From: Calditrichales bacterium
Lineage (GTDB): Bacteria > Calditrichota > Calditrichia > Calditrichales > J004
Direction of reading: 5' to 3'
NCBI GenBank assembly: GCA_965267575.1
Contig: OZ254086.1
Coordinates: 1,664,141-1,728,140, forward strand
Length of the DNA stretch: 64,000 nt
The notes beneath the pieces were generated by a model. The model was not told where the DNA came from, did no database searches, and worked only from the letters and a program-made list of their open reading frames with translations. Below, piece after piece: positions 4,340 to 39,967 of this stretch. Each line of letters begins with the position of its first letter. Within the stretch, counting starts at the first letter, position 1. A program made the position numbers and the translations under genes.

Positions 4340-5917
4340 ATGTCAACAGCACTTTACAGCGTGCCACGGCACATCATGATCATAGACGATGATTTCGATT
4401 TTGCCGAAAGCCTTTCGGATATTCTTACGGACAACGGCTACGAAACCTGCATTGCCCAAAACGTGCAGGAAGTTAAGGAGCGCAGTCCCGAATTTGATCC
4501 GCGGGTAGCGCTGATCGATGTGCGTTTTGGCGACATCAGCGGTTTGGAACTGATCGAGTATTTCAGGGAGAGCAGACCCGCTACGCTCTGTGTGATGATT
4601 ACGGCCTACGCGATAGTGGATTCCGCCGTGGAAGCCCTGAAAAGGGGCGCTTACGATTACCTGCGTAAACCGGTTAGCCCGGAAGACTTGTTGGCTACCA
4701 TCGATCGCTGTTTTCAGAAAATCGATCTTGAAGCAGAGAAGGAGGCGGCGCAGCGCGCCCTGCGCAATACGGAAGAGCAGTTGATCCAATCGCAGAAAAT
4801 GGAAGCCGTGGGCCGGCTGGCCGGTGGTGTTGCCCATGATTTTAATAATATCCTGACAATTATCCTCGGCTTCAGCGATATATTGCTTACCAAAATTGAC
4901 GGGGATCAGGCCGAGTATCTAAACGACATTCAGCAGATCCGCAGCGCTGCACTGCGTGCCAGCTCCCTAACCAAGCAGCTACTGGCCTTCAGCCGCAAGC
5001 ATGTGGTATCACCCGAAATTCTCAATGTGAACAAAATATTAAAAGAGATCGAAAAGATGCTCATGCGTCTTATCGGCGAAAATGTGGAGCTGGAGCTTAA
5101 ACTTGCAAACGGCATCGGGCAGATAAAGATGGACATGTCCTACCTGGAGCAGGCGATATTGAACCTGGTGGTAAATTCGCGCGATGCGATGCCCAAAGGC
5201 GGCAAGATTACAATCAGCACTAAACAGGTGTCCCTGAACGGTAATGAGCCCGGCCTGCTTATGCCGCGGGCAGGTTCGTTTGTTTGTGTCTGCGTGGCCG
5301 ACATCGGCATCGGGATGAGCCAGGACACGTTGCAGTTCATCTTTGAGCCCTTCTTCACCACCAAGGATGTCGGGAAGGGAACGGGATTGGGGCTTTCCAC
5401 GGTTTTCGGCATTATACAGCAGTGCGAGGGAACGCTGGAGGTAGACAGCGAACCCGGAAAGGGCACCAGGTTTTATCTCTATTTCCCGGTACATAAAGGC
5501 GAAGATGGTGAAAAAGCGCAGGTAGTTCCTGAAACGCATGTAGACGGAACAGAGACGATCCTGCTGTTGGAGGATGATACCACCCTGCGCGAGTTGGTGG
5601 CAAGCATTTTAACCCGCCACGGCTATGAAGTACACAGCTACGGCGATCCCCATCTCTGCCTGCGCGAAGTGGCTAAAAGCAAACAGCAGTTTGATCTGAT
5701 CGTCAGCGATATAGTTATGCCCGGATTTAGCGGACCTGAAATAGTAGAAAAGATTTACGGAGACAGGGAATGGCCGGCGGTTATGTACATGTCCGGTTAC
5801 ACCAATGACGCGATTTCAAGTTATGACATTGAAAAAGCCAACGTGGAGTTTATTCAGAAGCCGTTTGCGCTGGCGGAGTTTATGCAGAGGGTCCGTTCTT
5901 TCCTGGACGCACAGTAA
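4340..5917 (+). CDS. hybrid sensor histidine kinase (REC - HisKA - HATPase - REC)
   Basis: 525 aa. N-terminal receiver ([14 protein letters not shown]...[12 protein letters not shown]). H-box [15 protein letters not shown]-boxes DIGIGM and [10 protein letters not shown]-terminal receiver (ILLLEDD...[13 protein letters not shown]...QKPF). Confidence 0.85.
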
Positions 5918-10369: not shown

Positions 10370-11081
10370 ACTGAGCATTTTCATCGTGGATGATGACGTT
10401 GATTTTGCCGAAAGCCTGGCCGACGTCATCGAGATGAGAGGCTACCAGGTGCAGATTGCCAACGATGGTGAGGAAGCCGTGGAGCGTTTTCGGCAAAACT
10501 CCTTCGATCTTGTTTTTATGGACGTAAAGCTGCCCGGCATCGATGGCGTAGAGGCGTTTTCAAGGATCAGGGCACAGCAGTCCGACGCCAAGGTGATTAT
10601 GATGACGGGCTTTAAAGTGGAGCAGCGCATCAAGGAAGCGTTGCAGAACGGCGCCTGGACGGTTCTTTCCAAACCACTGGACATCGATTATGTTTTGCAG
10701 GTTATTGAGCGTCTTGATATGGGCGGGGTACTTATTGCCGAGGACGATGCTGATTTCCGCGCCACGATAGAAGAGATTCTGACCGAAAAGGGCTACAGTG
10801 TCATACTGGCACAAAATGGCGAAGAGGCGCTGGCCAGGGTAAGAAAAAATGCGCCCGATATCGTTATTCTTGATTTGAGATTGCCGCTGATACACGGTAT
10901 CGAAGTGTACCTTGAAATGCGCCGCGAGAACATCACCATTCCGACAATTATTATTACCGCCTACCTGGAAGAAGAGGCTACGGCCATAAAGATATTACGG
11001 GAAAATAAGGTGGACGGGATCCTGGTAAAACCTTTTGCGCCTGAGGACCTTTTAAGCCTGGTTGAAAAAGCTAAGATATAG
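10356..11081 (+). CDS. tandem-receiver response regulator (REC-REC, no output domain)
   Basis: 241 aa with two CheY-like halves (IFIVDDDVDFAESL...LVFMDVKLPGIDG...SKPL and VLIAEDDADF...IVILDLRLPLIHG...VKPF). The start overlaps the upstream kinase by 14 nt. Confidence 0.85.
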   Translation: MTRDKLSIFIVDDDVDFAESLADVIEMRGYQVQIANDGEEAVERFRQNSFDLVFMDVKLPGIDGVEAFSRIRAQQSDAKVIMMTGFKVEQRIKEALQNGAWTVLSKPLDIDYVLQVIERLDMGGVLIAEDDADFRATIEEILTEKGYSVILAQNGEEALARVRKNAPDIVILDLRLPLIHGIEVYLEMRRENITIPTIIITAYLEEEATAIKILRENKVDGILVKPFAPEDLLSLVEKAKI

Positions 11082-21914: not shown

Positions 21915-23609
21915 ATGTCCGAAAACTATCCGCTAACCGGGAACGAAGAGAAGAAGATACTGGGTTTTTACAAAAACCTTTTTCAGTATCCTAATGTCTA
22001 TCTTTTTCCGCTTGTAAACGGTCGCAGCATGGAGCCGGAACTGGCCCTTGGCGATGACCCGCTTCCGCCGTTTTTCCCCGACAGTCCCATTGATTGGATT
22101 AACTATTACCAGAAAGTGTTGCTGCCTTCAAACAGCGAAGAACAAGGCGCTATCGGTGCCTTTTTTGAACACTTCGATCTGGATATGTTGTGTCCCATCC
22201 GCATGAACGGTACCTGTTTCGGTTTTCTGGGTATCAACGCGCGTGGCAAGCCGCTCAATCACCTGGAACAGCAAATCGCCGGCTTGATCGTTCGCTACCT
22301 TGGCACGTTATGGACCAACCGCCGCCTGGTAGAAGATATCCGCACGAACGCCTCCAAAACGGAAACCCTGCTGATGGAGATCAGCACGCTGCTCGAGGTA
22401 AACCAGGCCATCGAGAGCGGCGGCGAAATCCAGAGCGTTCTGGAAACGATCATGGAAAAGTGCATGGATGTGCTGAAAGTGGAAGCCGTATCTTTGCTGT
22501 TACTTACCGAAAATAAAAAGGAATTGGAGTTCCGCGTGGCTCTGGGTCCGCGTGGCAAAGAGGTGCAGCGCTACCGCGTCAAGGTCGGCCAGGGCATTGC
22601 CGGCACGGTGGCCAAAACAGGCAAGCCACTTCTGATTCCCGATGCCTACTCGGACAAGCGTTTTGACCGCAGCTTCGACCTGAAAAGCGGCTTCCGCACG
22701 CGCAGCATTTTGTGCATGCCGCTGACTTATCGTGGTACGCGACTGGGCGTTGTGCAGGCCCTGAACCGTTTTGACGGCAAGCCCTTCGGCGATGAAGATC
22801 TGCGCTCGTTCAACCTGTTTACGCGCCAGGCCGCACTGGCAATCGTTAACGCGCGATTGCTCTACCAGGCCATGCGCAAAAAAGAGCTGGAAAACCAGTT
22901 AACCGTAGCTTCGGAAATACAGCGGCTGATCGTGCCCAAACAGCTGCCCAAATTCGACGATCTCGATGTGAGCGGCTATTACCGTCCCAGCCAGCAGATT
23001 GGCGGCGACTTCTACAGCGTGATCCGGCTTAATGACAATCAAACCGTTTTTTGCGTTGCCGATGTGGCCGGCAAAAGCGTACCGGGAGCCCTGCTGGTTT
23101 CTACTTTGCATTCCACCCTTAACGCCTACCTGGAATTCAGTAATGACCTGGAAGAGATTGTCAACCGGCTCAACACACGCATCATGAAGATGTCGACAAG
23201 TGACCGCTTTATTACGCTGTTTCTGGCCCTGTACGATCGAAAAGAAGAAGCACTCAGCTACATCAGCGCCGGTCACAATCCGCAATTCCTGATGCACCGG
23301 CCTTTTGAAATCCGCCGTCTGACGTCCACGGGCATCTGTATAGGCATAACCCCTTTTGCCTATAAAGCAAAAACGGTCTCCTTAAATGAGGATGATATTC
23401 TTGTTATGTACACCGATGGTTTTGTCGAGGGGCGCAACAACGACGGCGACGCATTCGGTGAAAAACGGCTGGAAAAAATTCTTTACGAAAACGCCGATCG
23501 ACCGGCCGGCTATATCATCGATCAGATCGTCAGCACCTTCAACGATTTCTGCCGCACTCCATCCGACGACCTCACCTTACTGGTTGTAAAAAAAATTAAA
23601 TCCCAATAA
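21915..23609 (+). CDS. GAF-domain PP2C/SpoIIE-type serine phosphatase
   Basis: 564 aa. Central GAF region (EAVSLLLLTENKKELEFRVALG...GIAGTVAKTGKPLLIPDAYSD.RF). C-terminal PPM region (GGDFY...ADVAGKSVPGALL...ISAGHNP...YTDG...DDLTLLVV). Confidence 0.85.
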   Translation: MSENYPLTGNEEKKILGFYKNLFQYPNVYLFPLVNGRSMEPELALGDDPLPPFFPDSPIDWINYYQKVLLPSNSEEQGAIGAFFEHFDLDMLCPIRMNGTCFGFLGINARGKPLNHLEQQIAGLIVRYLGTLWTNRRLVEDIRTNASKTETLLMEISTLLEVNQAIESGGEIQSVLETIMEKCMDVLKVEAVSLLLLTENKKELEFRVALGPRGKEVQRYRVKVGQGIAGTVAKTGKPLLIPDAYSDKRFDRSFDLKSGFRTRSILCMPLTYRGTRLGVVQALNRFDGKPFGDEDLRSFNLFTRQAALAIVNARLLYQAMRKKELENQLTVASEIQRLIVPKQLPKFDDLDVSGYYRPSQQIGGDFYSVIRLNDNQTVFCVADVAGKSVPGALLVSTLHSTLNAYLEFSNDLEEIVNRLNTRIMKMSTSDRFITLFLALYDRKEEALSYISAGHNPQFLMHRPFEIRRLTSTGICIGITPFAYKAKTVSLNEDDILVMYTDGFVEGRNNDGDAFGEKRLEKILYENADRPAGYIIDQIVSTFNDFCRTPSDDLTLLVVKKIKSQ

Positions 23610-26477: not shown

Positions 26478-28958
26478 TTATTTCAATAAAAGCATTTTTT
26501 TGCTGATTGTTTTGGCTGCCGTGGTCAGGCGGTATATATAGAGTCCGCTGGCAAGGTGATCTCCGCGAAAGGTGACGGCGTGTTGCCCGGCTTTTACACT
26601 TTGATTAAGCAGCTGAGCCACTTCCCGACCGAGCATGTCATAAACAGCCAGATCGACGCGCGTGCTCTTGTTTATGCTGAATTCAATGGTCGTTTGCGGA
26701 TTAAAGGGATTCGGATAATTGTCAAAAAGGGTTATCTGCTGCGGAACAAAGGATGGCACATCATCCAGGCCAACCGGATAGGTGTCGATATGTGTTAATC
26801 TTGAGGTTCCTGTAAGCCCGGCACTATTGTAATCACCGGCAATAATAATTCCCTGGTCAGAAACAATCAGCTCGCGCACCACCGCATTTGCCTGTTCATT
26901 ATTCAGGCTGATTGTTGTGGGGCGCGGGTTTCCTCCAACGGAATCGATCACAGCAAATCCGTTGCGCACGCTCTCGCCAAGACGATTAAACGATCCACCC
27001 ACATGAATTTCTTCACCACGCTGGAAAATAGCGTAGACCGTTCCGCGGGAGCTGTTGCCGTTAAATTCCAGCAGAAACTGTGGTGCAACATCACCCTTCA
27101 GGCTATAGTCAGACAGCGAAAAGGCCGCAAAGCTGGCCTGATCCTTTCCGGCCACTTCGGAAAAATTTCCCCCGATATAGAGCGTATTGCCATAAGCCAT
27201 AAGCGTGTTGGGCGAACTGTTAGGTTCGGGATTCAGGGCATTGGCGTTTCCGCTGACTATATCGACGCCGGCGACATATTTACGGCTTTGCCCGCCAATG
27301 TTGTTAAACCAGCCGGCAACGTAAAGCGTGTTGTCGTGCAAGGACATGGAGCGCACGCTGGATTGCGGCTGAGGGTCCCAGCTTTCCAGGTTTCCTGACG
27401 CGTCAAAGGAAACGAGATAGCCGCGTTCCTGCCCACCGATTTCGTTAAAGCCCCCGCCAACAAAAAGACGATTGTTGCCGTAGGCCAGGGCCTCCACCGT
27501 TGAGTTGGGCTCAGGTGCCCAGTCGGTCAGGCTGCCGTCGGACAGGTTAATGGAGGCCAGGTTTCTGCGTTCCTCACCGTTGATGTTCCAGAAGCTGCCG
27601 CCGATGTAAAGAGTTTGGTCCACCACAATCACGTCGTTTATACGACCGCTCAGCTCTATGGAAATATCCAGCAGTTTGCTATCGGCTATGTTAAACGCTG
27701 CCAAACCTTCCCGCGAAGCACCATTCATTAGCCGGAAGCGGCCGCCGGCAAAAAGCGTCTCTTCATCATGCGCCAGAACGGTGCCGCGATATCCGGCAAC
27801 AGGGTTCCAGTCGGTAACACTGCCATCTGTCATTGAAACGGCGCCAAGATAGTTGCGGTCCATACCGCCCAGTTGCTTAAAGTCACCCGCTACAAACATG
27901 GTGTTGTCATAAACGCTGAAACTTTCGATTAGGGTTTCAAAACCGCCGACCTGCGGAGCCCAATCGAGAAAACTGTTATTGTTTATGTCCCATGCAGCCA
28001 GACAGGTGCGGCTCGTTTCATTTACGCTGCTATAGCCGCCGGCCATGTACAAGACATTGTTTATGATTTCAATGTCGTAAAGTCCCGCCGGTCCCTCTTC
28101 CTGGTAAAAATCGAATTTCAGCGCAGTCACTTTTTCGCTTTCCATATCTATTTGCGCGAAATATTCACGGCTGGAGTCGGCGATTCCGACAAAACTGCCC
28201 GCAAGAAAAAGCCGGCCATCATGGACAATACCGTCGAAAATAATCTGATCGCCGAAGTTGGTTTGCCCGTTTTGCGGGTCCCAGTCTGTGGCCATGCCCG
28301 AAACGGTATCAAGCTCTGCCATGCTAAAGCGGTCCTGGCCGCCGATGTTGGTAAAAATACCGAGAACCAGCAAAGTCGATTCCCGCGGCAAGATCTTATG
28401 CACAGTACCGTTAAAGCTGTAGCGCACCGCCTGCGGGTCCCAATCCGTAAGCTCAAGACTGTCCAGGCTGAAGCAGGCCAGCCCCATGCGATCAATGCTG
28501 TCCACCATTGTAAAATCGCCGCCGATGTAAAGCCGGTTATCCCATAACAACATGCTGCGGACTTCACCCCCCTCAATACGCGGCGTCCAGTCATCCAGGG
28601 TGCCATCTCCGGTTACATGAACGAGACCGAACTTCTGCTGCTCAGCGGCGCTGATAAAGTCTCCGGCAACGTACCAACCTCCATTGCCGTCGCTGATGGC
28701 CGCGGTGACATTTCCGTTTATTTTAGGATAATTGTCCAGCCAGTTTCCAATATTAAGATCAAAGAAAGCAGCCCCGCCGCTATAGGGACCAACGACATCA
28801 AAACCGCCGGCCATGTAAAGCGTGTTATCGACCAGCTCAATATCATTGGGAGTGGTGTTTGGGATATACAGCTCCTTGTTCACCTGGGCGTTTGCGGCTT
28901 GTACAAAAAGCAGCGTAATACAAAAAATCAAAGTGTTACAAAACATACAATCCTCCAA
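26478..28958 (-). CDS. secreted multi-blade beta-propeller repeat protein with T9SS C-terminal sorting domain
   Basis: 826 aa. About a dozen 50-55-aa repeats follow the pattern ...LY(I/V)GG.F..(I/V)(G/N)G..R..LA..(D/N)...G.(L/V)(T/L)DW.P.... The CTD is NYPNPFNPQTTIEF...SGLYIYRL...KKMLLLK. Confidence 0.7.
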   Translation of the reverse strand: MEDCMFCNTLIFCITLLFVQAANAQVNKELYIPNTTPNDIELVDNTLYMAGGFDVVGPYSGGAAFFDLNIGNWLDNYPKINGNVTAAISDGNGGWYVAGDFISAAEQQKFGLVHVTGDGTLDDWTPRIEGGEVRSMLLWDNRLYIGGDFTMVDSIDRMGLACFSLDSLELTDWDPQAVRYSFNGTVHKILPRESTLLVLGIFTNIGGQDRFSMAELDTVSGMATDWDPQNGQTNFGDQIIFDGIVHDGRLFLAGSFVGIADSSREYFAQIDMESEKVTALKFDFYQEEGPAGLYDIEIINNVLYMAGGYSSVNETSRTCLAAWDINNNSFLDWAPQVGGFETLIESFSVYDNTMFVAGDFKQLGGMDRNYLGAVSMTDGSVTDWNPVAGYRGTVLAHDEETLFAGGRFRLMNGASREGLAAFNIADSKLLDISIELSGRINDVIVVDQTLYIGGSFWNINGEERRNLASINLSDGSLTDWAPEPNSTVEALAYGNNRLFVGGGFNEIGGQERGYLVSFDASGNLESWDPQPQSSVRSMSLHDNTLYVAGWFNNIGGQSRKYVAGVDIVSGNANALNPEPNSSPNTLMAYGNTLYIGGNFSEVAGKDQASFAAFSLSDYSLKGDVAPQFLLEFNGNSSRGTVYAIFQRGEEIHVGGSFNRLGESVRNGFAVIDSVGGNPRPTTISLNNEQANAVVRELIVSDQGIIIAGDYNSAGLTGTSRLTHIDTYPVGLDDVPSFVPQQITLFDNYPNPFNPQTTIEFSINKSTRVDLAVYDMLGREVAQLLNQSVKAGQHAVTFRGDHLASGLYIYRLTTAAKTISKKMLLLK

Positions 28959-29190: not shown

Positions 29191-31905
29191 TCAGCGCAGC
29201 GTAATCAGCAGCGTTTCAATTGACGCCGGGCCGGCAGTGAATGCAAAAAGGTGTTTGTGCTCCAGTGCCAGCTTCCCGGTTTCATTTTCCAGCAGATCCG
29301 CTTTAGAAACTTTGCTCAGCGCACGCCGCGTACGGGCGCTCACCAAAAGGTTTTTGGAACTGCGGTTGTAAACGCGCACAACAAACTGTTTGCGCTTTTT
29401 GCCGCTCTTTAGTGCGCTTATTTGTATCTCCGGCCGGTCAAAAGCGATTACCGGCGTGGCGGGCAATTGCCTTCCAGGCGCGCCTGTGAGGGTCTGGCTG
29501 TAAAGGGGAACAGCATACTCATACGCCACACGATGGGCCTGCTCCGGCTGCATGTTTTTGGCGAAAGGGACCAGGCTGTATTCAAACGTATGGCTGCCGG
29601 GGCATTGCGCTTCCGGTGTAGCCAGTTGTGGACCGGCCTGGGCCACGCGCGTTATGTAATCATTGCGTGAGAGAATACCCACACAGCGCAGCAGCGTAAG
29701 GGCAATCGCCGAATTTTCTTTTTGATGAATTATCTCATATTCAGGGAGGCCGCGGTTAGCCAGCAGCAATCCCTTTTCTTTCTTGTTAATGTAGACATAA
29801 GCGTTGTTGTGCCGCGTGCCGTAATATTCAAAACGGTTCTTAGCGTCGGGACGTTTATCGAAATGTGCCGGGCGTTCGATTGTGCCAAAGTGGCCGTCAG
29901 CGTAGGCCTTGCTAGCTTTAAATCCCGCAGGAAACAGAACCCTGAGCCTGTGATCTTCGGCTTTGTTGTCAAAGTGTGTCTTAAAATCTATACGCGGCTG
30001 ATTGTGATACAGCGTGATTTCAGTTTGCAGCCGGCAACCAACATTCGCCTGTGAACGACGCGCTCTTTTAGTGTGCAGCTTTTGGGGCAAAAGCCACGCA
30101 TATGTCAGCCGCATGGTTACGGCCAGCGGTCCGACCACCGGAAAATCAATTTTATCCGGCTTTTGGCGCAGCAGCAGGCGCTTGCCCTTTTCCACCCAGG
30201 AGTAGGTATATTCGTCGCCGGCATCCTCGCAATCTTCAAATAAATTACAATCTTCGTAAACCTGGCCGTTGCGCTTATCGGTAATCGTCAGCGTACCGTC
30301 TTTTGCGAGCTGAACTTTAAAGAAAGCGTTTTCGATTCTATCCTCGCCATGGCGCAACGTAGAGTGAGGCAATCCCGCCTTTTCTTTGAGGGGTGCGACA
30401 GACAGCATACGCCAGCCACAGGATGGAACCGAGCGGGCGGCAAGAAGCACTTTAACCCTGCGGTAACGGGCTTCGCTTAATACCTCCATGCGGTAAAGCG
30501 CCTCATCGGAAATGACCTGGTGCGGCAGCACATCGCCATTTTCATCCATGATGTGCCATTTTGAAATATCGGCCTGCGACAATGAAGACGGCAACAGCAG
30601 TTCGCATTCGGCCAGATCGGTATTGTCCCAGTTAAGCGGGTTAAACAGAAAAAGCGTGCGCGCTTCCGGATCACCGTTCATATCACTTCGGAATGCATCG
30701 AGCACGGCCTGCTCGCAGACATAGCGCCCAATTTGCTGTACTTTCTCAAAAAGTGTCACATTCTCGCGGTGTACTTCATCCACGCTGCAGCCACAAATGT
30801 CATCATGCGGATGGTTTTTGAGCAGCGTTTTCCAGGCGTTTTGAATAAACGCAGAATAATCCGCCCCGTTGTAAAGACGGCATAAAAGTGCCAGCGGCTC
30901 GGCATAACGCTCCAGCAGATTCTGGCAGGCATAATTGGCCTGCTTCAGATAGATCCGGGCAGAATAAACGCTCAGCAAAATAGGGTGGTGATAATTGCCG
31001 ATCAGTTCTCCGCTGTGGGTTTTAAGGTTACCCGAATGCTTTTCAACTTCGTCAATAAAATCGGCAAAAGTGCCGTGGCGCAGTTCAATGTCACTTTGCA
31101 CTTTGTTGCAGGCTTTTATCAGTTTGGGTGTTTGCGGCTGCGGTGGCAAATGATCAATGCCGTTGTTTAGCAGGATAGCCGGTGTTTGCGCCAGCGGTTT
31201 TAAATTATTCAGCGTTTTTTGCAGGTTCTGCAAAGCAACCTCTTCATCCGGTTCGCTGAAGCGGTAATCGCCAAAGTCATATTCAAAGCCCCAGCAGGCC
31301 AGGTTGCCGTAAATGTCGCGTTGGTTAATTGAAAGGATGCGGCTGCCGTCCGGGCCTTCCCAGAAAAAATCTGTGCCCAGCTTTTCGATTTCTTTGCCCA
31401 TGCCTCGGGAAAAGATAAAGGAGCGCAGTCCGCTTTTTTTCAGTATTTGCGGCAACTGGGCAATATGTCCAAAAGGATCGGGTACATAGCCTTCCCGCAT
31501 TGTAGCTCCAAATTCTTCGGCGATGGCCATACCCATTTGCAGGTTGCGAACAAGGGCTTCACCGCTCACCAGAAATTCATCGGGCAGAATATACCATGGC
31601 CCTACGTGCAGCCTGCCGGACTTTACCAGTTTTTTTAATCTCTCTTTATTTTCCGGCTTTACTTCCAGGTAATCCTCAAGAACAACGGTTTGGCCGTCCA
31701 GCACAAAGGCTTGGTAGTCAGAATCGTTTTCCAGGATTTCCAGCAACTGGTCGATGGTTTGCACAAGCCGCACGCGAAACCACTCAAACGGCCAGTACCA
31801 GGCCCGGTCCCAGTGCGTGTGTGAAACAACAAATCCTGTAAGCTTTTTCTCAGACATTACACTTTCCCGGTTATGCGATTTTTGATTAAACATCAATTGG
31901 GTCAA
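29191..31905 (-). CDS. GH38 alpha-mannosidase
   Basis: 904 aa with the N-terminal GH38 signature VVSHTHWDRAWYWPFE. The real start may be ATG 31857 (MSEKKLTGFVV...). Confidence 0.85.
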   Translation of the reverse strand: MTQLMFNQKSHNRESVMSEKKLTGFVVSHTHWDRAWYWPFEWFRVRLVQTIDQLLEILENDSDYQAFVLDGQTVVLEDYLEVKPENKERLKKLVKSGRLHVGPWYILPDEFLVSGEALVRNLQMGMAIAEEFGATMREGYVPDPFGHIAQLPQILKKSGLRSFIFSRGMGKEIEKLGTDFFWEGPDGSRILSINQRDIYGNLACWGFEYDFGDYRFSEPDEEVALQNLQKTLNNLKPLAQTPAILLNNGIDHLPPQPQTPKLIKACNKVQSDIELRHGTFADFIDEVEKHSGNLKTHSGELIGNYHHPILLSVYSARIYLKQANYACQNLLERYAEPLALLCRLYNGADYSAFIQNAWKTLLKNHPHDDICGCSVDEVHRENVTLFEKVQQIGRYVCEQAVLDAFRSDMNGDPEARTLFLFNPLNWDNTDLAECELLLPSSLSQADISKWHIMDENGDVLPHQVISDEALYRMEVLSEARYRRVKVLLAARSVPSCGWRMLSVAPLKEKAGLPHSTLRHGEDRIENAFFKVQLAKDGTLTITDKRNGQVYEDCNLFEDCEDAGDEYTYSWVEKGKRLLLRQKPDKIDFPVVGPLAVTMRLTYAWLLPQKLHTKRARRSQANVGCRLQTEITLYHNQPRIDFKTHFDNKAEDHRLRVLFPAGFKASKAYADGHFGTIERPAHFDKRPDAKNRFEYYGTRHNNAYVYINKKEKGLLLANRGLPEYEIIHQKENSAIALTLLRCVGILSRNDYITRVAQAGPQLATPEAQCPGSHTFEYSLVPFAKNMQPEQAHRVAYEYAVPLYSQTLTGAPGRQLPATPVIAFDRPEIQISALKSGKKRKQFVVRVYNRSSKNLLVSARTRRALSKVSKADLLENETGKLALEHKHLFAFTAGPASIETLLITLR

Positions 31906-32018
31906 TCTCTGCCAAGATTACACATTTTTCTTATACGGATAAACGCTTGTCGATTATAAATATTTGCCAGACTGGCAAATCAAAAAAACAATCAAAGTAT
32001 AAACAGGAGTTGCTATTC

Positions 32019-33242
32019 ATGAGTCGTATTTTTCCAGTATTTATCATATTAATCTTATTATTATCAAGTGCTTCAGCACAGGAACCTATACAGGTATTTG
32101 GATTTTTTCAAACCCGCTTAATGCAGGTAAACGGAACAAGTGATGTGATTGCACGGGATGTTCCCGTAGCCATTAATCCTCAAACAGGCATGCCCGTTTT
32201 TCAGGATGTAACAGTCAGTGAGGTCGAGGAAGACCGCCTTACCGCTGATATTCAGCAATTAAACCTGTTTTTCAGAAAAGAGATTGATCCGCGCTTTACA
32301 GCCTGGGTAAACCTTGAACTTACAAATACCTACTCTTCCGAGCGCGGATGGGGAACAATCAATCTTGAAGAAGCATGGCTGCGCTACACCCGCACTGATG
32401 CCTTTGTTGTAAAAGCCGGCTTGCTGATCCCCAAATTCAACAGTATGAATGAAATCAAAAACCGTATGCCCCTGCTGCCTTATATCATCCGCCCGCTGGT
32501 GTATGAGGCATCGCTTTCGGCGATTTTTAACCAGGGCGACTTCATTCCCGGACGTGCTTTTGTCCAGGTTTATGGCAGCATTCCCGTGGGCAAAGCCATT
32601 TTTAACTATGCCGTTCATGCCGGTCACGCTGAAAAAGAATACTTTGTTTCCGGAGATGCAGTAGGCGCCCAGGTGGCCGGAACCGACACAACCACGTTCA
32701 AGGCATTCGGCGGTCGCGCCGGTGTTGAGTATGGCAACGTGAAAGCCGGTGTATCTTTCACCTATGACTATGACAATCAATATATACCGCTGGCCATGGG
32801 CGTACCCGCGCTTAACCAGGATGTACCGCGTACACGTTTGGGTGCAGACCTGGCCTTTACATTGGGTGATGCCTATTTCGAGGGCGAATTTATCCAGGTA
32901 ACCGAAGATCCTGATACGGACCCGGTTCTTGGCGACGTGGACCTCGACAAGATGTTTTATTATGGAACAGCCGGCTACAATTTTACTGATCAGTGGTTTG
33001 GTTATGGCAGCTACAGCTATATCGAAGACAACGCAGTGGACTTTCTTGGTGACGGCATGCAGAGCTATCTCGTGGGTTTTGGTTTCCGTCCGGCCTACTC
33101 GGTTGTACTGAAAGCCCAGTATGCCCATTACGTTGTCGATAACGGCACAACAAGCATCCCGATTCCTGAAGTGGGTGTTGTGCCCGGAACGGTAGATATC
33201 AAATATGATGCGTTTGGCGTGGCCCTTAGTATCATTCTGTAG
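32019..33242 (+). CDS. putative outer-membrane porin (beta-barrel)
   Basis: The ORF track starts at 31947; I prefer ATG 32019, which follows AGGAG (MSRIFPVFIILILLLSSASAQEP...). The sequence shows alternating amphipathic beta-strand character with many aromatic girdle residues. Family assignment is uncertain. Confidence 0.5.
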   Translation: MSRIFPVFIILILLLSSASAQEPIQVFGFFQTRLMQVNGTSDVIARDVPVAINPQTGMPVFQDVTVSEVEEDRLTADIQQLNLFFRKEIDPRFTAWVNLELTNTYSSERGWGTINLEEAWLRYTRTDAFVVKAGLLIPKFNSMNEIKNRMPLLPYIIRPLVYEASLSAIFNQGDFIPGRAFVQVYGSIPVGKAIFNYAVHAGHAEKEYFVSGDAVGAQVAGTDTTTFKAFGGRAGVEYGNVKAGVSFTYDYDNQYIPLAMGVPALNQDVPRTRLGADLAFTLGDAYFEGEFIQVTEDPDTDPVLGDVDLDKMFYYGTAGYNFTDQWFGYGSYSYIEDNAVDFLGDGMQSYLVGFGFRPAYSVVLKAQYAHYVVDNGTTSIPIPEVGVVPGTVDIKYDAFGVALSIIL

Positions 33243-33272
33243 TAACCATAAATACGAGTAGCGGAGATTATA

Positions 33273-33686
33273 ATGAAAAAGATTTTGATTTTAATACTGG
33301 CAATGTGCGCTATGACAATTGCGTCGGCAAACGCGCAGGTAGCAGTAATCGTAAATAATTCTGTCGGAGAAGACGCACTTGATCAGACAAAACTGGCGCA
33401 AATCTATACACTGAAGGTTAAAAGCTGGGATGATGGCAGTAAGATCGTTGTCTTTGATTCAAAGGATGATATATCCGATCAGTTTTACAGCTATATCGGG
33501 AAGTCAGCAGCGGATTTGCGCAAGGAGTGGATGCGCGCACAGCTTACCGGTGAAGGTAAGGCGCCAAAGGCCCTCAAAAACGACGCGGAAGTCATCGAAA
33601 GTGTTGCCGCAACGCCCGGAGCTATCGGCTATGTCAGTGAGGCATCTGTCACCGACAAGGTAAAAGTGGTGGCAACCATTAAGTAA
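33273..33686 (+). CDS. small periplasmic PstS-like (PBP-like) substrate-binding domain protein
   Basis: 137 aa with a signal peptide. VAVIVNNSV...L...IYT...W.DGSKIVV and PGAIGYVS are PstS/PBP_like motifs. The protein is only about half the length of a complete two-lobe PBP. Confidence 0.6.
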
Positions 33687-33699
33687 CCATGGAGAAGAC

Positions 33700-36114
33700 A
33701 TGGAAGTATTAACATTCCTGAAAAAATCGGTTAAGTGGAAGCTGGTTGCGGCCTGCAGCGCAATCTTAATTGTGCTGATCGTATTCACCTCCATCTACTT
33801 TCCATCGAAACAAAAATCACTGGCCCTGGATTACGCGCAGACGCAGGTGCACACGCTGAGCGAAATGATCGCCTTTACAGCTGGCGCCGGTCTTTATGAC
33901 GGTAACATCGAGCTTGTTTCCGCGGCTATGGATTGGGCGAAAAAGGATCCTAATGCCGTCTATATCCGCATTGTGGATAACGACGGTAATCAGATCATAG
34001 AGTACAACCCTTCGAATCTGTCGTTGCAAGGTGTAGCATCCATGGCTGCCGGCGAAACGAAGGTAGACGGCGAGTACATTCTGGCACTTGCCAAAATGGA
34101 TTATCAGGAGACAGAGTTTGGCCAGATACATATTGGCTATTCGCTGGAAGCGGTGAATGACAAGATCGGCGGCACAGTGGTTGTCTCGGTGCTGATCAAT
34201 CTGCTGCTTTTTGCCATCGGCATCGGGCTGATCCTGTTTATCAGCAATTACCTTACGCGGCAGATTGTAAACATCCGCAATGCCGCGCGTCAGGTGGGTG
34301 AAGGCGATCTTGATGTGGAACTTTACGTAACCAGCGAAGACGAAATCGGTGAGTTGAGCCAGTCCATCAACAGCATGGTACAATCGCTGCGCTTAAACCG
34401 CGAGCAGACGCTGGAGCAGGCCCGTACCGCCGATAACATCGTGCGTGAAGTAGATGGTGTGGCCGACCGCCTGCGCGAGGGTGATATTGACGCCCGCGCC
34501 AATGTGGACAGCGTAAATGAAGATCACTACAAGCGTATGCTTTTAGGCTTTAACCAGGCTCTGGACGCGGTTATCCACCCCACGCTGGAAGCTATGGAGA
34601 TCATCAGCGAATATGCCGCCGGTAACCTGGAGCGCGAAATGCGTACGCTTCCCGGTAAGCAGATTGCGCTTACAAATGCCATAAATACAATCCGAAATAA
34701 CCTGAAAACATTGATTGGCGAGTTGCTGATGCTGGTGAAGGCGGCCGAAGAGGGCAATCTTTCCGTACGCGGCGATCTGGATAAATTTGACGGCAGCTAT
34801 GAGGAGATCATCCGTGGCGTCAACAATATCATTGCCCGGATAATAGAACCGGTCCGTGATGCCATCGGCGTGCTGCAGGATATCGCCACAGGCAACCTTG
34901 CCGTGGAGGTCCGCGGCGACTACAAGGGCGATCATGCCAATATGAAAATCGCCATGAACAAAACGCTGAGCGCCCTTAACAACGCTTTGGGCAAGGTTTC
35001 CCGTTCCGTAGATATGGTGCGCTCAAGCGCCGGACAGATTTCCGATAATAACCATTCGCTGTCGCAGGGTGCGTCCGAGCAGGCCAGCTCTTTGGAGCAG
35101 ATAACAGCCTCGATGAAGGAAATTCAATCACAGACGAATAACAACTCCGCCAGCGCCGTACAGGCCAGCAAGCTTACCGGGGAGGCTTCCAGCTTCGCGC
35201 ACAAAGGAAACAGCAAAATGCAGAGTATGCTTGAGGCCATGAATGAGATCAACGGTTCATCTGAAGAGATCTCCAAGATCATTAAGGCCATAGACGAGAT
35301 CGCGTTTCAAACCAACCTGCTGGCGCTGAACGCGGCCGTGGAAGCGGCACGCGCCGGTGTACACGGCAAAGGCTTCGCCGTTGTTGCCGAGGAGGTGCGC
35401 AGTCTGGCGCAACGCAGCGCCAAGGCGGCCAATGAGACAACAGAGCTGATCGAGAATTCCGTCTCGAAAGTGAAGAACGGCATGCAGATTGCCAATGAGA
35501 CGGCCGAGGCCCTGGAGTCGATTGTAAGCCAGGTGACCAAAGCATCGGATCTGGTGAACGAAATCGCCGTAGCCAGCAAGGAACAGGCGGAGGGCATTTC
35601 ACAGGTAAACAGCGGCTTGGAACAGATTGACAAGGTAACCCAGCAGAATACGGCCAATGCCGAAGAAAGCGCTTCAACCGCCCATGAACTGTTCAACCAG
35701 TCCAGCGAGTTGCAGCAGCTTATCGGTAAGTTTAAGCTGCGCCGTGCCCGGCAGGATCTGCATCAGGCACCAAAAGTGAGCAATGGTTTTCAAAAGCCGC
35801 AAGAACAGGCTGCCACCCGGCCGGCAAAACCGCTCCCAAAGCCCGTGGCAAAAACAACGGCAAAGCCTGCGGCCAAAGAAGCGGAGAAACCCGCCGCTAA
35901 CAATAGTGATTCAACTGATAAAAACAGCAGGCGAAGAGTGGATAATGTTTCCGCAAAACCTGTTGTCAAAAATGGCAAAAAAGAAAAAGCCGACGCACCC
36001 GCGCCGGCTTCTAAAAAGAAAGCTCCCGATAACGATCACCATTTTGGCATGGAACATTCCGACGATGATGATATCATTATCAATCTTGATGATGACGATT
36101 TCGGAGATTTTTAG
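33700..36114 (+). CDS. methyl-accepting chemotaxis protein with poly-HAMP array and long C-terminal tail
   Basis: 804 aa with two TM segments and at least four HAMP-like G(D/N)L... units. The canonical signalling hairpin is present ([44 protein letters not shown]). Confidence 0.9.
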
Positions 36115-36118
36115 CGGA

Positions 36119-37975
36119 TTACTTGATAAGAACCAGCTTCTGGCTTAAAGCCCGGCCGGTCGCTACAAGACGAACGAAATAAATCCCGGATGCAAGCTCT
36201 TCGCCCGAATAGCGCTGAGAATGCAGGCCGGGATTTTTTTTGCCTTCAACCAGGGTCGCCACAACGCGCCCGTTGATGTCATAAATTTTTAGGGCAACTG
36301 TTTCGGTCCTGTCAAGCTTGTAGCGAATGTTTATCTGGCTGTTAAAGGGATTGGGATATGCCGGAAGCAGTTCAAATGTTGTGGGACTGTTTGATTGCAG
36401 CCGCTCATCCTGCAGTGACGTCAGGATCAGGTCTTCAGGGCGGTTGCTGTTAACCAGCATAACCGCGTCGCTGAACAGGATATCACCATCGGGCAAGTTG
36501 TGATTATCCAGGCGCAGGAACGTTTGTTCACCCTCCTGCAAATAAACATCGCCCACCTTATGCCAGCGGCGGTGCCCGGGCTTGCGCTGATTGACATACA
36601 CCGTGTCAGCGGGTCCATTGCTGTGCAGAAGCTGGTAAGGTGCCTGCTGATGTGCCGCAAATTGATATATAATCCAGGCGTATACTTCGTACCAGCCTTC
36701 ACGCGGCACCTGCGCGCTGTAAGTGATGGCGGCGGCGTCATTATCGGTAGCGTAAATACAATCGGTATCTTCAAAACCCGGCAAAGTTGTGTAGGTCGTC
36801 CACGACCCGCTTTGCTGCACGGCGCTGCTGTCTTCGTTAATTATGATGGCCGGCAGGCGCCAGTCAGCCGGACGGTAGGGTACGTTTACTTTTTCGCTGT
36901 AAGGTCCGTTTTTCAACGTTTCATAATAAGCGCCCAGCCGCGCGTGATACCAGATCACGTGACCGGTCAGCCCCTCGTTGCGCGTTGTCTCAATCATTTT
37001 TACCAGCTCGGAAGGCGGCGTCTCATTGCTGTTTGCGATTGTCGAGATGCCGGGATAGACCAATGTGTCGTTGTTTGTTTTTTTCAGTTCTTCGTTGAGA
37101 CGGAAAGAATAGCTGCTGTTGCTGCTGTAGTAGACCTGCGGTGTCACCGTATCCAGCCAGCCATTGTTGATCCATGCCGGCCAGTCCTGGCAGAATTGTT
37201 CATAGCCGTACCACAGAGGCGCGTTGCTCACGTGCATTTCGGGATTAACCGCTTTTATGGAATCATACATTTCAGCCATGAACAGGTTAAGCTTGTCCGC
37301 CCGCCAGCGAATCCAGGCGGAGTTGCCGATGCTTGTGGGCGGCTCCTGCCCGTTGTGTTCGGACTTATATAGTTCCACCGTGGCCGAATCATAACCGCAA
37401 TCCAGATCGGGGTAACGGACGCGGTCGAATTCTACGCCATCCAGATCATAGCGGCGAACGGCATCCAGTACGAATTGTATCAGAAATTCCTGGGCATCGC
37501 GGTTTACGTGGCTTAGCCATTTGTACTGCACGCCGCCGTTCGCTTCGAAGGTGGTATTGCCGTTACGCTTTTCGGCAAACCATTCCGGGTGTTCATTAAA
37601 CAGGGCAAGATTGTTTCCCGCACAGGCCTGGAAGCCGGCCTCGAACCAGGCATCCACATTCAGACCATAGCGGTGGCCTTCGGCGATCATATCGGCCATG
37701 ACATCGCGGCCTTCTTCCAGCAGCGGGTCCGTGTAATGGCCCGTTTCTTCATGAAACACATTGCTGCGGAAGTAGGGCCAGCCAAAGCGCCATACATCCA
37801 CGTATACAGTGTTAAAATTATTTTCTGAAAGCAGGCGCATCGCTTCGCTGATTTCTTCCTTGGACGGTATATCGTTACCGGCCCAGGCCAGCCAGGCTCC
37901 GCGTACTTCTCCTGCGTTAAGACCAAAGGCCATCAACAATGTAATTACGATGGAAATAAACAATCTTTTTATCAC
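36119..37975 (-). CDS. GHL10 (DUF187) glycoside-hydrolase-like enzyme + beta-sandwich domain + T9SS CTD
   Basis: 618 aa. GTG start preceded by an AGGGGA Shine-Dalgarno, then a signal peptide. EVRGAWLAW...NFNTVYVDVW...EAGF resembles DUF187. The CTD is AYPNPFNSQINIRY...SGIYFVRL...QKLVLIK. Confidence 0.7.
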   Translation of the reverse strand: MIKRLFISIVITLLMAFGLNAGEVRGAWLAWAGNDIPSKEEISEAMRLLSENNFNTVYVDVWRFGWPYFRSNVFHEETGHYTDPLLEEGRDVMADMIAEGHRYGLNVDAWFEAGFQACAGNNLALFNEHPEWFAEKRNGNTTFEANGGVQYKWLSHVNRDAQEFLIQFVLDAVRRYDLDGVEFDRVRYPDLDCGYDSATVELYKSEHNGQEPPTSIGNSAWIRWRADKLNLFMAEMYDSIKAVNPEMHVSNAPLWYGYEQFCQDWPAWINNGWLDTVTPQVYYSSNSSYSFRLNEELKKTNNDTLVYPGISTIANSNETPPSELVKMIETTRNEGLTGHVIWYHARLGAYYETLKNGPYSEKVNVPYRPADWRLPAIIINEDSSAVQQSGSWTTYTTLPGFEDTDCIYATDNDAAAITYSAQVPREGWYEVYAWIIYQFAAHQQAPYQLLHSNGPADTVYVNQRKPGHRRWHKVGDVYLQEGEQTFLRLDNHNLPDGDILFSDAVMLVNSNRPEDLILTSLQDERLQSNSPTTFELLPAYPNPFNSQINIRYKLDRTETVALKIYDINGRVVATLVEGKKNPGLHSQRYSGEELASGIYFVRLVATGRALSQKLVLIK

Positions 37976-38020: not shown

Positions 38021-39967
38021 CTACTTTATTAAAACCATCTTTCTGGTGGATATAATCCTGTCGTTGGCAACCAGCCTGTAGAAGTAGACACCGCTGGTCA
38101 GGCTGCCGGCATTGAATGTGACCGAATGTGTGCCGCTGTTTTTGTTGCCCTGGTCTACTTTGGCAACCTGGCGTCCGGCTATATCAAAAATCTCGATACG
38201 CACGTCTGCTTTGCGCGGCAGACTATAGGTAATTTCGGTTGTCGGGTTGAAAGGGTTGGGATAGTTCTGCTCCAGCGTAAAGCGGCGCGGCTGCTCAATG
38301 GGCTTGTCGCCGATAGCCGTCAGCGTGCTGCGCACCACGTTCACATAATTGGTATCCGTCGGAAAGTAGCCCTCGCCAAGCTGGTCGACATAGTAATAAT
38401 GGGTAAATTTGGCATTGGCGCCCAGCGGGTTTTTATCCGGGAAGGAAGCTTCCACGCCCTGACCGTTGCTGGCCATGTAGGCCATAACCGCCACTTCGCC
38501 GGTCAAAGCGCCCACACCCGCGTCGTTACGGATTGCGGAGACTTCGGTAACCTTGTCCTCGCCCTCATCGGCAAAAGCCAAAGCACCCTGCGCGGCCACG
38601 TTGCCGTCAAAAAGGTTTTCTTCCCAGCTGCTGCCGTTCCATTTCCAGATGGTGCCCAGAAGGAAATCGGCCTCATCCCAGGGCTCCACTTCATAAACGA
38701 TGTCCGCCTTGAAAGGCAGAGCGTTTATGCCGCCGCGGGCCACCGGTGGTGTCTGTGTGCCGTTGGGACCTTCGGGATCCAAATCAAAGGCGATATAGAG
38801 AAATCTTTCTTCCGTCGGGTCCACCAGGCCGTCACCGCTGAGGCCAAAGAAAACTTTGCCCACGGACCAGGTGAAGAACATATCACGGCCATTGCTAGTG
38901 CCAACGTGATCGGTCGGGAAATAGTCATTGATACCGTCAATGCTCACCACCAGGTTGCTGTCGCGCGGAGCAGAAGCTTTCAGCAGATTATCCATGCTCA
39001 GCGAACCGATGCTGTTAAAGCCCATCAGCGTGATCAGCGAATGCCGCCGGGAATCATAATCCACAACCGCCGTGGCGTTGGGGTTGCTGTTAAGGCCGGA
39101 GCTGTAGAACAGCGCCGATGAGTCGGAGTTTTCCCCAAAATAGTCGTAGGTGACTGTGCCCAGTTCATCCTCAAAATAGCGCACGGTTCTCACCGTTGCG
39201 GCGTAGGCATTGGAGACGGTTAACAGCTTGTATTGGCCAAGTTTTAGTGCTTTCACATGAGACGTGCCGCCGGGTGACGCAAAGCTGTCCGGTACGCTGG
39301 AAATAAGGGTGCCGCCGGATGAAAGCAATGTAGGCGGGTGCTCGGGGTTGGCCGAATTGATCCATAAGTTGCCGTTTGCCAGCGGTGAAATGCCGTGGCG
39401 GGCATTTCCGGGTACCGGTAATACCGGCTGACTGTCCAGGGTTGCCGTAGCGCCGCCGGTGTCACGGATAACAACAACATCGACCGTCTCAAAACCGGAC
39501 GAGTAAAGCAGCTTATCGGAGCCGAATGTTCTTACCGCGAAAGAATCGCCGTAGCGTTTATCATCCAGCGCGTCATCAAATATGGTTTCAGGTGCGGCCG
39601 ATTCATCGGCGTAGCGGTATATTTTGAATGTGGCGCCCGGTGTAAATTGCGGCGCTGAAAGATTGCACACATAGATCGTACCATCTTCGGCCACGTCAAT
39701 CAGGTTGATCGGGTACGTGCCTCCACTCAGCCCTTCGGTATTCATCATGCCAAGGGAGTCGCCGGTGGCCGCATCCAGAATGATAATACGCACGCCGCCC
39801 TTACGCGTAGCCACCAGCACATGGTCGGTTGTGGCGTTATAGGCTACGCCCCGGGTATTGTCGCCGCCGATGTCAATAAATTCGTGGCTGACCCAGTTTA
39901 GCGGGTAGGTGCTTTGGGCAAGCGACATGCCCAGAAACAACCCAAGAAAAAGTAACATTCGCTTCAT
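38021..39967 (-). CDS. secreted protein of unknown function with T9SS CTD
   Basis: 648 aa. AAGGAG Shine-Dalgarno and a signal peptide. The CTD is NYPNPFNPTTEITY...SGVYFYRL...RKMVLIK. The N-terminal region looks beta-propeller-like, but I did not recognise a family. Confidence 0.6.
   Translation of the reverse strand: MKRMLLFLGLFLGMSLAQSTYPLNWVSHEFIDIGGDNTRGVAYNATTDHVLVATRKGGVRIIILDAATGDSLGMMNTEGLSGGTYPINLIDVAEDGTIYVCNLSAPQFTPGATFKIYRYADESAAPETIFDDALDDKRYGDSFAVRTFGSDKLLYSSGFETVDVVVIRDTGGATATLDSQPVLPVPGNARHGISPLANGNLWINSANPEHPPTLLSSGGTLISSVPDSFASPGGTSHVKALKLGQYKLLTVSNAYAATVRTVRYFEDELGTVTYDYFGENSDSSALFYSSGLNSNPNATAVVDYDSRRHSLITLMGFNSIGSLSMDNLLKASAPRDSNLVVSIDGINDYFPTDHVGTSNGRDMFFTWSVGKVFFGLSGDGLVDPTEERFLYIAFDLDPEGPNGTQTPPVARGGINALPFKADIVYEVEPWDEADFLLGTIWKWNGSSWEENLFDGNVAAQGALAFADEGEDKVTEVSAIRNDAGVGALTGEVAVMAYMASNGQGVEASFPDKNPLGANAKFTHYYYVDQLGEGYFPTDTNYVNVVRSTLTAIGDKPIEQPRRFTLEQNYPNPFNPTTEITYSLPRKADVRIEIFDIAGRQVAKVDQGNKNSGTHSVTFNAGSLTSGVYFYRLVANDRIISTRKMVLIK

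Follow-up and report, generated by a model that had tools for sequence, protein, structure and literature searches.

How does a cue that meets the outer membrane of a bacterium reach a receptor in the inner membrane? The route is obscure for most bacterial sensors, and it is raised in a compact form by three consecutive plus-strand genes in a 64,000-nucleotide stretch of Calditrichales bacterium DNA (contig OZ254086.1 of assembly GCA_965267575.1, positions 1,664,141 to 1,728,140; hereafter the window). The first gene encodes a putative porin, the second a short secreted relative of the phosphate-binding protein PstS, here called the mini-PBP (PBP, periplasmic binding protein), and the third a methyl-accepting chemotaxis protein (MCP). 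A preliminary description of this DNA, made from the sequence without database searches, read the arrangement as indirect ligand sensing, in which a solute enters through the porin, binds the mini-PBP, and is presented to the MCP by docking of the complex. The analysis reported here identifies the triad as an instance of an envelope-sensing kit that is widespread yet undescribed. The kit belongs to a known kind, in which envelope sensing is coupled to accessory proteins, and its mode of sensing, as we infer it, differs from that proposal in one central step. No published description of the porin/mini-PBP pair or of the triad was found in the open-access full-text literature; the analogues found there were YfiBNR and CtpL-PstS.

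The porin and mini-PBP genes form an almost obligate pair in many phyla. A genome scan limited to one genome per species returned at least 315 mini-PBP relatives, loci were taken from the 80 best, and neighbouring genes were classified by hidden Markov models (HMMs) for the porin, the mini-PBP and signalling domains only. These 80 loci represent Ignavibacteria/Melioribacteraceae, KSB1, Fibrobacteres, Acidobacteriota, Desulfococcaceae and Nitrosomonas/Nitrosospira, and also Xanthomonas, Luteimonas, Shewanella, Marinobacter, Methylotuvimicrobium and others. In 78 of 84 genome loci the mini-PBP gene had a porin-family gene as its immediate neighbour. Several of the remaining six lie at contig ends (e.g. 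L051, L063, L064), and two, L020 (7001-12143) and L021, are apparently real exceptions in which no porin gene adjoins the mini-PBP gene. A signalling gene on the same strand directly flanked the pair in 57 of the 84 loci, as compared to 4.1% of background open reading frames (ORFs; binomial p ~4e-42, the loci being non-independent). When metagenomes were searched from the opposite direction, with the porin as seed, a mini-PBP gene lay immediately downstream in 69 of 71 loci with room for one, and a HAMP sensor was present in 28 of the 30 loci having at least 2.5 kb of room. The linkage of the three families, on which the indirect-sensing proposal depended, is thus conserved. The pair was also found tandemly duplicated within one operon (L004/L037 4759-8159, L086 5721-9168, L047 5116-8655, and L015), and at L043 two consecutive mini-PBP genes stand between the porin gene and the MCP gene. 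At L020, the window-type sensor domain occurs in an MCP encoded ~3 kb away on the opposite strand. The nearest relatives of the window's mini-PBP were from Ignavibacteria and 'Bacteroidetes' metagenome-assembled genomes (MAGs).

These gene orders bear on a simple alternative, namely that the porin and the mini-PBP take up or retain a solute that the sensor binds directly, the mini-PBP never contacting the sensor and the genes being linked since the ligand must cross the outer membrane. Pairs that lack an adjacent sensor (~30% of loci) and the tandem duplicates at L004 and L086 favor such a device, whereas sensor adjacency in 28 of 30 loci of the window's clade does not. The operon and the genes directly flanking it include no ABC transporter gene, and none was recorded next to related pairs, although no transporter-specific search was made; the lack of a linked inner-membrane transporter, read within that limit, also counts against an uptake function. 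Together with the fusions and the co-divergence described below, this leaves the uptake reading improbable.

What, then, is the mini-PBP? The protein is secreted, its signal peptide ending in ASANA ahead of QV, and it matched PBP_like_2 (PF12849) with 31.1 bits against a cut-off of 27, over profile positions 94-188 of 267. Across a sample of 37 family members, PBP_like_2 was matched at E<=1 by 30, some of them below the gathering score. An AlphaFold (AF2) model of the protein is a compact α/β domain with a predicted local distance difference test score (pLDDT) of 91.7. In a Foldseek search of the PDB, the best 36 matches consisted entirely of phosphate-binding proteins, namely PstS, PhoX and near relatives of these, and about half of each chain was aligned, as illustrated by 4gd5 with template modelling scores of 0.68 for the query (TMq) and 0.39 for the target (TMt) and a root-mean-square deviation (rmsd) of 2.0 Å. 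A profile comparison with Escherichia coli PstS using hhalign gave 93% probability and covered PstS residues ~79-190. By this sequence mapping, and in keeping with the model, the mini-PBP is a single lobe equivalent to lobe II of PstS, and the hinged two-lobe architecture of PstS (~250-320 aa) is absent from its 137 residues. The preliminary description had called the protein PstS-like and too short for two lobes, and had left its assignment between PBP_like_2 and the YfiR/DUF4154 families to an HMM comparison, which favored the former. Membership in YfiR/DUF4154 was rejected, as PF13689 was not matched by any of the 37 members (E<=1) and hhalign to E. coli YfiR gave 1%; YfiR was likewise missing from the top 50 Foldseek PDB matches of the mini-PBP. 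NCBIfam has a model for neither the porin nor the mini-PBP family.

A protein of half the PstS length, with a Pfam score barely above threshold, could in principle be a truncated pstS pseudogene that lies next to a porin and an MCP by chance, one of the outcomes named in the preliminary description as fatal to the sensing proposal. The first homologue search, however, found 91 relatives, every one of 128-172 aa, and an exhaustive profile search found 11,781 (E<=1e-3), 7,358 (E<=1e-10) and 539 (E<=1e-30) clusters at 50% identity, nearly all single-domain; those at E<=1e-10 were almost all of 131-170 aa. With thousands of homologues of the same length, bearing a signal peptide and conserved ends, the mini-PBP is therefore not a pseudogene; the confident compact model and the linkage far above background agree, and the chance reading has become vanishingly improbable.

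Alignment of the mini-PBP to PstS also indicated what has become of the phosphate site. The PstS segment VRRADGSGTS is aligned by hhalign to FDSK--DDIS in the window protein, and the equivalent columns are variable in the family, so that the PstS positions R135, D137, S139, G140 and T141 are all lost. The old anion site is acidic in the window's mini-PBP, which argues against phosphate as the cue. The residues kept in common with PstS (F71, W86, G93, P98 and the TPGAIGY segment) look structural or fold-determining.

These observations weigh directly on the original indirect-sensing proposal, in its classical form a mini-PBP, perhaps as a homodimer with a two-lobe cleft, that binds the solute admitted by the porin and docks in its loaded state on the MCP, much as maltose-binding protein (MBP) does on Tar. 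A closer precedent is phosphate chemoreception in Pseudomonas aeruginosa, where Pi-loaded PstS docks on CtpL (PMC4926252, PMC8050422), and the PstS ancestry of the mini-PBP, the apparent OprO/OprP-like ancestry of the porin, the basic residue that most family members carry beside the old site (see below) and the existence of natural tandem two-domain relatives of the mini-PBP all lean in this direction. Against it stand the single lobe, the five lost lobe II ligand positions with their acidic replacement in the window protein, and the gene orders examined, in which no ABC transporter was noted beside the module (within the limit on transporter searches given above). One tandem relative was modelled, and it was predicted as two independent domains: each domain was confident while their arrangement was not (predicted TM-score, pTM, 0.50; linker pLDDT <50; alignment of only nine sequences), and in Foldseek comparisons with PstS only one domain superposed (TMq 0.36), whole-length alignments having an rmsd of ~16 Å. 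That two mini-PBP lobes rebuild a Venus-flytrap is thus unsupported by the tandem model, which with a nine-sequence alignment is not decisive. Of the indirect-sensing proposal, then, the operon as a real unit and the mini-PBP as a conserved one-lobe derivative of PstS both stand, and the step that lacks support is binding of the solute by the mini-PBP, given one lobe, lost ligands and a tandem form that is not predicted to close. We regard solute-loaded docking as unlikely overall, though less so than the uptake device.

The first protein of the operon proved to be more distant from annotated families. Its signal peptide is MSRIFPVFIILILLLSSASA, followed by QE, and the window's 407-aa protein had no Pfam match at E<=1 and no NCBIfam match. 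Relatives from related loci (n=44) fared better, with Porin_4 matched by 12 and Porin_O_P by 10, and a profile of the family compared with the PDB recovered OprO (4rjw, E 5e-5) and OprP (2o4v, E 2e-4). The family has a conserved motif, FNxxNEIKNRxPLLPYIxRPxVYE, and a C-terminal residue that is aromatic in nearly all members. The protein is accordingly accepted, on these family-level sequence matches, as a porin-family β-barrel of an unannotated family with a probable distant tie to Porin_4 and OprO/OprP, and the original designation as a putative porin is retained in that sense.

The third partner is more varied than the first two. The preliminary description had specified an MCP, and that part of the triad did not generalize, as histidine kinases, GGDEF-EAL proteins and HD-GYP proteins, with other periplasmic domains, may take the place of the MCP. 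The classes linked to the pair, as defined by Pfam, include MCPs with the N-terminal domain found in the window; 4HB_MCP_1 proteins that are either MCPs or kinases; in Xanthomonas, MCPs of the poly-HAMP type; in beta- and gammaproteobacteria, proteins with the architecture dCache_3-(PAS)-GGDEF-EAL; and, in Burkholderiales, a response regulator (RR) of the RR-HD-GYP type plus a kinase, so that the outputs comprise MCPs, HAMP histidine kinases, GGDEF-EAL and HD-GYP proteins. Some of these sensors bear ordinary ligand-binding domains (4HB_MCP_1, dCache_3) able to bind small molecules, a point in favor of direct binding by the sensor and of the uptake device. In Nitrosomonadaceae (L033, L053, L056, L061, L062, L073 and others) the order is mini-PBP, porin and dCache_3-PAS-GGDEF-EAL protein. 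At L033 (2832-11723, Nitrosomonas sp. Nm84) the module lies directly downstream of exosortase A-associated genes for an acyl-CoA ligase (TIGR03098), a pyridoxal phosphate (PLP) decarboxylase (TIGR03099) and an acyltransferase (TIGR03694), which suggests that the Nitrosomonadaceae module is tied to control of PEP-CTERM proteins and exopolysaccharide (EPS).

Natural fusions place the mini-PBP domain in extracytoplasmic signal input. P0182 combines a mini-PBP with a DUF4154 (YfiR/HmsC-like) domain (DUF4154 E 6.5e-32); its gene, at L090 (4757-8982, JGI 3300075761), has a porin gene of this family (hhalign 99.96%) on one side and ORFs for CHASE8 and HAMP-GGDEF-EAL on the other. P0093 (744 aa) is a membrane transducer of the BlaR1 type (Peptidase_M56) in which a long acidic repeat linker leads to two mini-PBP domains at the C-terminal end; since they are C-terminal to the M56 region, these domains are presumably the outward-facing part. 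Both partners, YfiR and the BlaR1-type transducer, are signalling contexts, which speaks against a pure uptake device, and the existence of the mini-PBP::DUF4154 fusion makes the YfiR analogy the more informative lead. In a third protein, P0111 (689 aa), the mini-PBP domains number at least two and contain basic insertions, and the C-terminal region is uncharacterized. The CHASE8 and HAMP-GGDEF-EAL ORFs at L090 overlap and are possibly one frameshifted gene.

The window's own sensor has the class features of an MCP, with MCPsignal, HAMP and a two-transmembrane topology in which hydrophobic segments at residues 15-33 and 160-182 enclose ~126 periplasmic residues. This loop, described originally as ~130 aa with no recognized sensor domain, yielded only sub-threshold matches here and, judged from the sequence pattern of the sensor-domain alignment, looks like a helix followed by β strands. 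CHASE8 (PF17152) was matched at residues 44-120 with E 0.044 and 14.5 bits, failing its cut-off of 27, and sCache_4 was sub-threshold in the window MCP and matched in 3 of 13 sensor-domain homologues. The NCBIfam model NF053592, 'HK_near_YfiR_like' (a sensor histidine kinase associated with a YfiR-like protein), was matched by 12 of the 13 homologues and the DgcN/YfiN N-terminus model by 7 of 13, in both cases far below cut-off; the BarA N-terminus was likewise sub-threshold. A sensor-domain profile, from an alignment assembled from sequences at the module loci, had no significant match to the PDB, to E. coli DgcN or to the true CHASE8 protein of L090 (hhalign 1% for the last). The domain is kept only in the closest, Ignavibacteria-like clade. 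Inward of the membrane, the poly-HAMP array is of a type shared with Aer2-like receptors and with the module-linked Xanthomonas MCPs, and the best NCBIfam match of the protein was Vibrio Aer2 (309 bits over residues 344-720; the Aer2 cut-off is 1200). A C-terminal low-complexity tail is absent from homologous module-linked MCPs, and its last five residues fit the x-aromatic-x-x-aromatic pattern that we take to mark C-terminal CheR/CheB-tethering pentapeptides.

If the mini-PBP touches both other proteins, its divergence might be expected to follow theirs. Mantel tests on 11 related loci of the window's clade gave r 0.80 (p 2e-4) for the distances of the mini-PBP and the sensor periplasmic domain, r 0.65 (p 2e-4) for the mini-PBP and the porin, and r 0.27, not significant, for the porin and the sensor domain. 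With the signalling domain controlled in partial tests, the values were 0.68, 0.70 and 0.24, respectively. The nearest neighbour of a mini-PBP was linked to the same sensor type in 42 of 46 cases: those linked to 4HB histidine kinases (in KSB1, Melioribacteraceae and unclassified MAGs) are each other's nearest neighbours, and the one Melioribacteraceae mini-PBP linked to an MCP with the window's N-terminal domain (L011) pairs with another protein linked to that MCP type. This pattern is the one expected of a bridging partner and, as weak evidence from sequence distances, fits physical coupling. Closer co-divergence of the mini-PBP with the periplasmic than with the signalling domain of the sensor is hard to square with an uptake device that never contacts the sensor; co-divergence of the two is also what docking of a solute-loaded mini-PBP would predict.

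Taken with the fusions, these results point to a mini-PBP that might well serve as a periplasmic adaptor or relay between porin and sensor, by analogy with YfiB-YfiR-YfiN, a proposal that we hold at even confidence. The operon would encode a three-tier, envelope-spanning input module, in which the mini-PBP would touch the porin on its periplasmic side and the sensor at its periplasmic domain. The cue would arise at or through the porin, as occupancy by a solute that is small and possibly anionic, or as the state of the outer membrane, and the mini-PBP would relay it by partner switching, following the logic of YfiB at the outer membrane, YfiR as a single PBP sub-domain and YfiN as the inner-membrane sensor. 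Chemotaxis-type signalling, via che genes elsewhere in the genome, would be the output in this organism. A broader claim, to which we give a little less than even credence, is that the OprO/P-like porin, serving as receptor in the outer membrane, and the half-PBP, serving as an adaptor that switches partners, make up a portable trans-envelope module of many phyla. Such a module could be coupled to chemoreceptors, to histidine kinases and to cyclic di-GMP (c-di-GMP) enzymes, and would be a second independent invention of the YfiBNR logic from phosphate-uptake parts.

Several observations weigh against this relay. The mini-PBP is unrelated to YfiR by sequence (hhalign 1%, DUF4154 in 0 of 37), and the resemblance of the MCP periplasmic domain to CHASE8/YfiN stays sub-threshold. 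Linked sensors differ in their periplasmic domains (window type, 4HB_MCP_1, dCache_3), which is awkward for a single conserved docking surface. The pair stands alone or tandemly duplicated, without an adjacent sensor, at about a third of loci (e.g. L004, L005, L001), and may thus have a function of its own. Mirror-tree correlations are confounded by shared history, few loci and poorly aligned porin loops. Finally, a K, R or H occupies family column 68, at a helix N-terminus beside the old phosphate site, in 27 of 37 members, and with such a residue the mini-PBP may still bind a small anion.

The analogy with YfiBNR can also be carried further, to a system in which no solute is involved, the porin being a sentinel of outer-membrane integrity whose state the mini-PBP reads and reports to the sensor. 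YfiB responds to envelope stress (PMC4655355), the unusually conserved NEIKNRxPLLPYIxRPxVYE part of the porin motif could be a protein-binding surface, and the Nitrosomonadaceae module lies beside exosortase A-associated genes. This argument is one of analogy throughout, and an MCP output fits a chemical gradient better than a stress signal; we consider such surveillance a slim prospect, below the uptake device.

For the relay proposed here, the closest known systems are YfiBNR, AwsXRO and HmsCDE, which are likewise built in three layers: a protein in the outer membrane, a small protein in the periplasm that amounts to a single PBP sub-domain, and a sensor in the inner membrane that has HAMP and a periplasmic domain of small size. 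Structurally, YfiR corresponds to a lone sub-domain of a periplasmic binding protein. It is a direct binding partner of YfiB, and a prediction backed by mutations has the same conserved surface bind YfiN (PMC4655355); a half-PBP that acts as a protein-protein regulator therefore has precedent. Like YfiR, the mini-PBP is a secreted single PBP sub-domain whose gene accompanies those of an outer-membrane protein and a membrane sensor, a likeness of analogy and not of homology: it derives from a type II PstS lobe with no DUF4154 sequence relation, whereas YfiR resembles a type I binding protein. The outer-membrane partner is here a β-barrel porin of ~400 aa, in contrast to the OmpA-like lipoprotein YfiB, and the CHASE8-HAMP-GGDEF sensor of YfiBNR is replaced by an MCP, or at other loci by a kinase or GGDEF-EAL protein.

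CtpL, Tar-MBP, LuxP-LuxQ and NspS-MbaA are comparable in that a periplasmic binding protein is proposed to act on the periplasmic domain of a receptor, and CtpL-PstS in particular pairs a PBP_like_2-family protein with a chemoreceptor. The SBPs (solute-binding proteins) with which such receptors work are full-length, two-lobed and ligand-binding, unlike the mini-PBP with its one lobe and lost phosphate ligands; moreover, the SBP genes for the SBP-dependent chemoreceptors of E. coli and P. aeruginosa lie with transporter genes and not with chemoreceptor genes, whereas the mini-PBP gene shares an operon with its sensor and porin. The combination of a Porin_O_P-like barrel with a PstS lobe resembles OprO/OprP plus PstS, apparently from the same ancestor pair. 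It differs in that the porin likeness is seen at the family-profile level only (E 5e-5), the window protein failing Pfam, and in that no Pho-regulon or pstCAB context was noted at the module, where no transporter-specific search was made. As in Aer2-type poly-HAMP receptors, an array of HAMP, HAMP_N3 and HAMP_2 precedes MCPsignal, but Aer2 is soluble with a PAS-haem domain and the window MCP is membrane-bound with a periplasmic domain.

A pair of unannotated families thus accompanies four classes of sensor output in Ignavibacteria-like organisms, KSB1, Fibrobacteres, Acidobacteriota, Desulfobacterota, nitrifiers, Xanthomonas, Marinobacter and Shewanella. Should the pair be a common input device, it would provide a role for thousands of proteins that at present carry the label 'phosphate ABC transporter substrate-binding protein' or are called hypothetical, a second example, after YfiR, of a half-PBP as a protein-protein regulator, and tractable systems for study, among them the MCP triads of Xanthomonas and the GGDEF-EAL triads of gammaproteobacteria. 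Caution is warranted in annotation, and mini-PBP and porin genes should not be read as phosphate transport components.

The layout of the locus is given in Table 1. Coordinates and spacers were re-derived from the ORFs and reproduced the original gene arrangement, with 30 nt between the porin and mini-PBP genes and 13 nt between the mini-PBP and MCP genes; Shine-Dalgarno-like sequences are present. The porin start was taken as the ATG at 32019, which follows an AGGAG site, the longest ORF beginning with TTG at 31947. Both flanking genes are on the minus strand, and the three plus-strand genes therefore form a self-contained operon. Its promoter presumably lies within the AT-rich divergent intergenic region; scans for sigma-70 promoters and for terminators scored no better than shuffled sequence.

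Table 1. Features of the porin/mini-PBP/MCP operon and its flanks (window positions)
Feature	Position	Strand	Details
GH38 alpha-mannosidase, upstream flank	29191-31905	-	
AT-rich divergent intergenic region	31906..32018	.	GC ~0.38, sequence read
Porin gene	32019-33242	+	407 aa, ORF call
Mini-PBP gene	33273-33686	+	137 aa, ORF call
MCP gene	33700-36114	+	804 aa, ORF call
MCP periplasmic sensor domain	33799..34176	+	residues 34-159
Poly-HAMP array	34237..34983	+	HAMP, HAMP_N3, two HAMP_2 matches
MCP signalling domain	35170..35640	+	PF00015 MCPsignal, 174 bits
Low-complexity tail	35740..36111	+	124 aa, rich in A, K, D, P; ends DFGDF
GHL10/Golvesin_C glycosidase-like protein with type IX secretion system (T9SS) tail, downstream flank	36119-37975	-	

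The impression that the porin and mini-PBP genes are richer in AT than their surroundings holds, modestly, when computed. Their GC contents are 48.2% and 46.6%, respectively, as compared to 53.4 +/- 2.0% in 30 other long ORFs (minimum 49.3%), and GC at third codon positions (GC3) is 0.49 and 0.51 versus 0.56-0.65 in neighbouring genes. Both measures for the two genes (32019-33686) thus lie below those of all other long ORFs of the window, and the HAMP and signalling part of the MCP has the window-average GC. Candidate causes are the amino-acid composition of secreted proteins or a separate origin.

The statement that the window holds no che genes agrees with a six-frame phmmer search of its 64 kb, in which E. 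coli CheA/W/R/B/Y/Z, MotA/B and FlhA/B queries matched receiver domains, this MCP and nothing else. Signalling genes located elsewhere in the window encode a hybrid histidine kinase with two receiver domains (4340-5917), a 241-aa receiver-domain ORF that is presumably a response regulator (10356-11081) and a GAF-SpoIIE (PP2C) phosphatase (21915-23609); no link between these three and the operon was found. T9SS C-terminal sorting domains (Por_Secre_tail) are carried by the products of three nearby minus-strand genes (26478-28958, 36119-37975 and 38021-39967), and these neighbours, together with the GH38 enzyme, point to an organism of the FCB group that secretes glycan-degrading enzymes.

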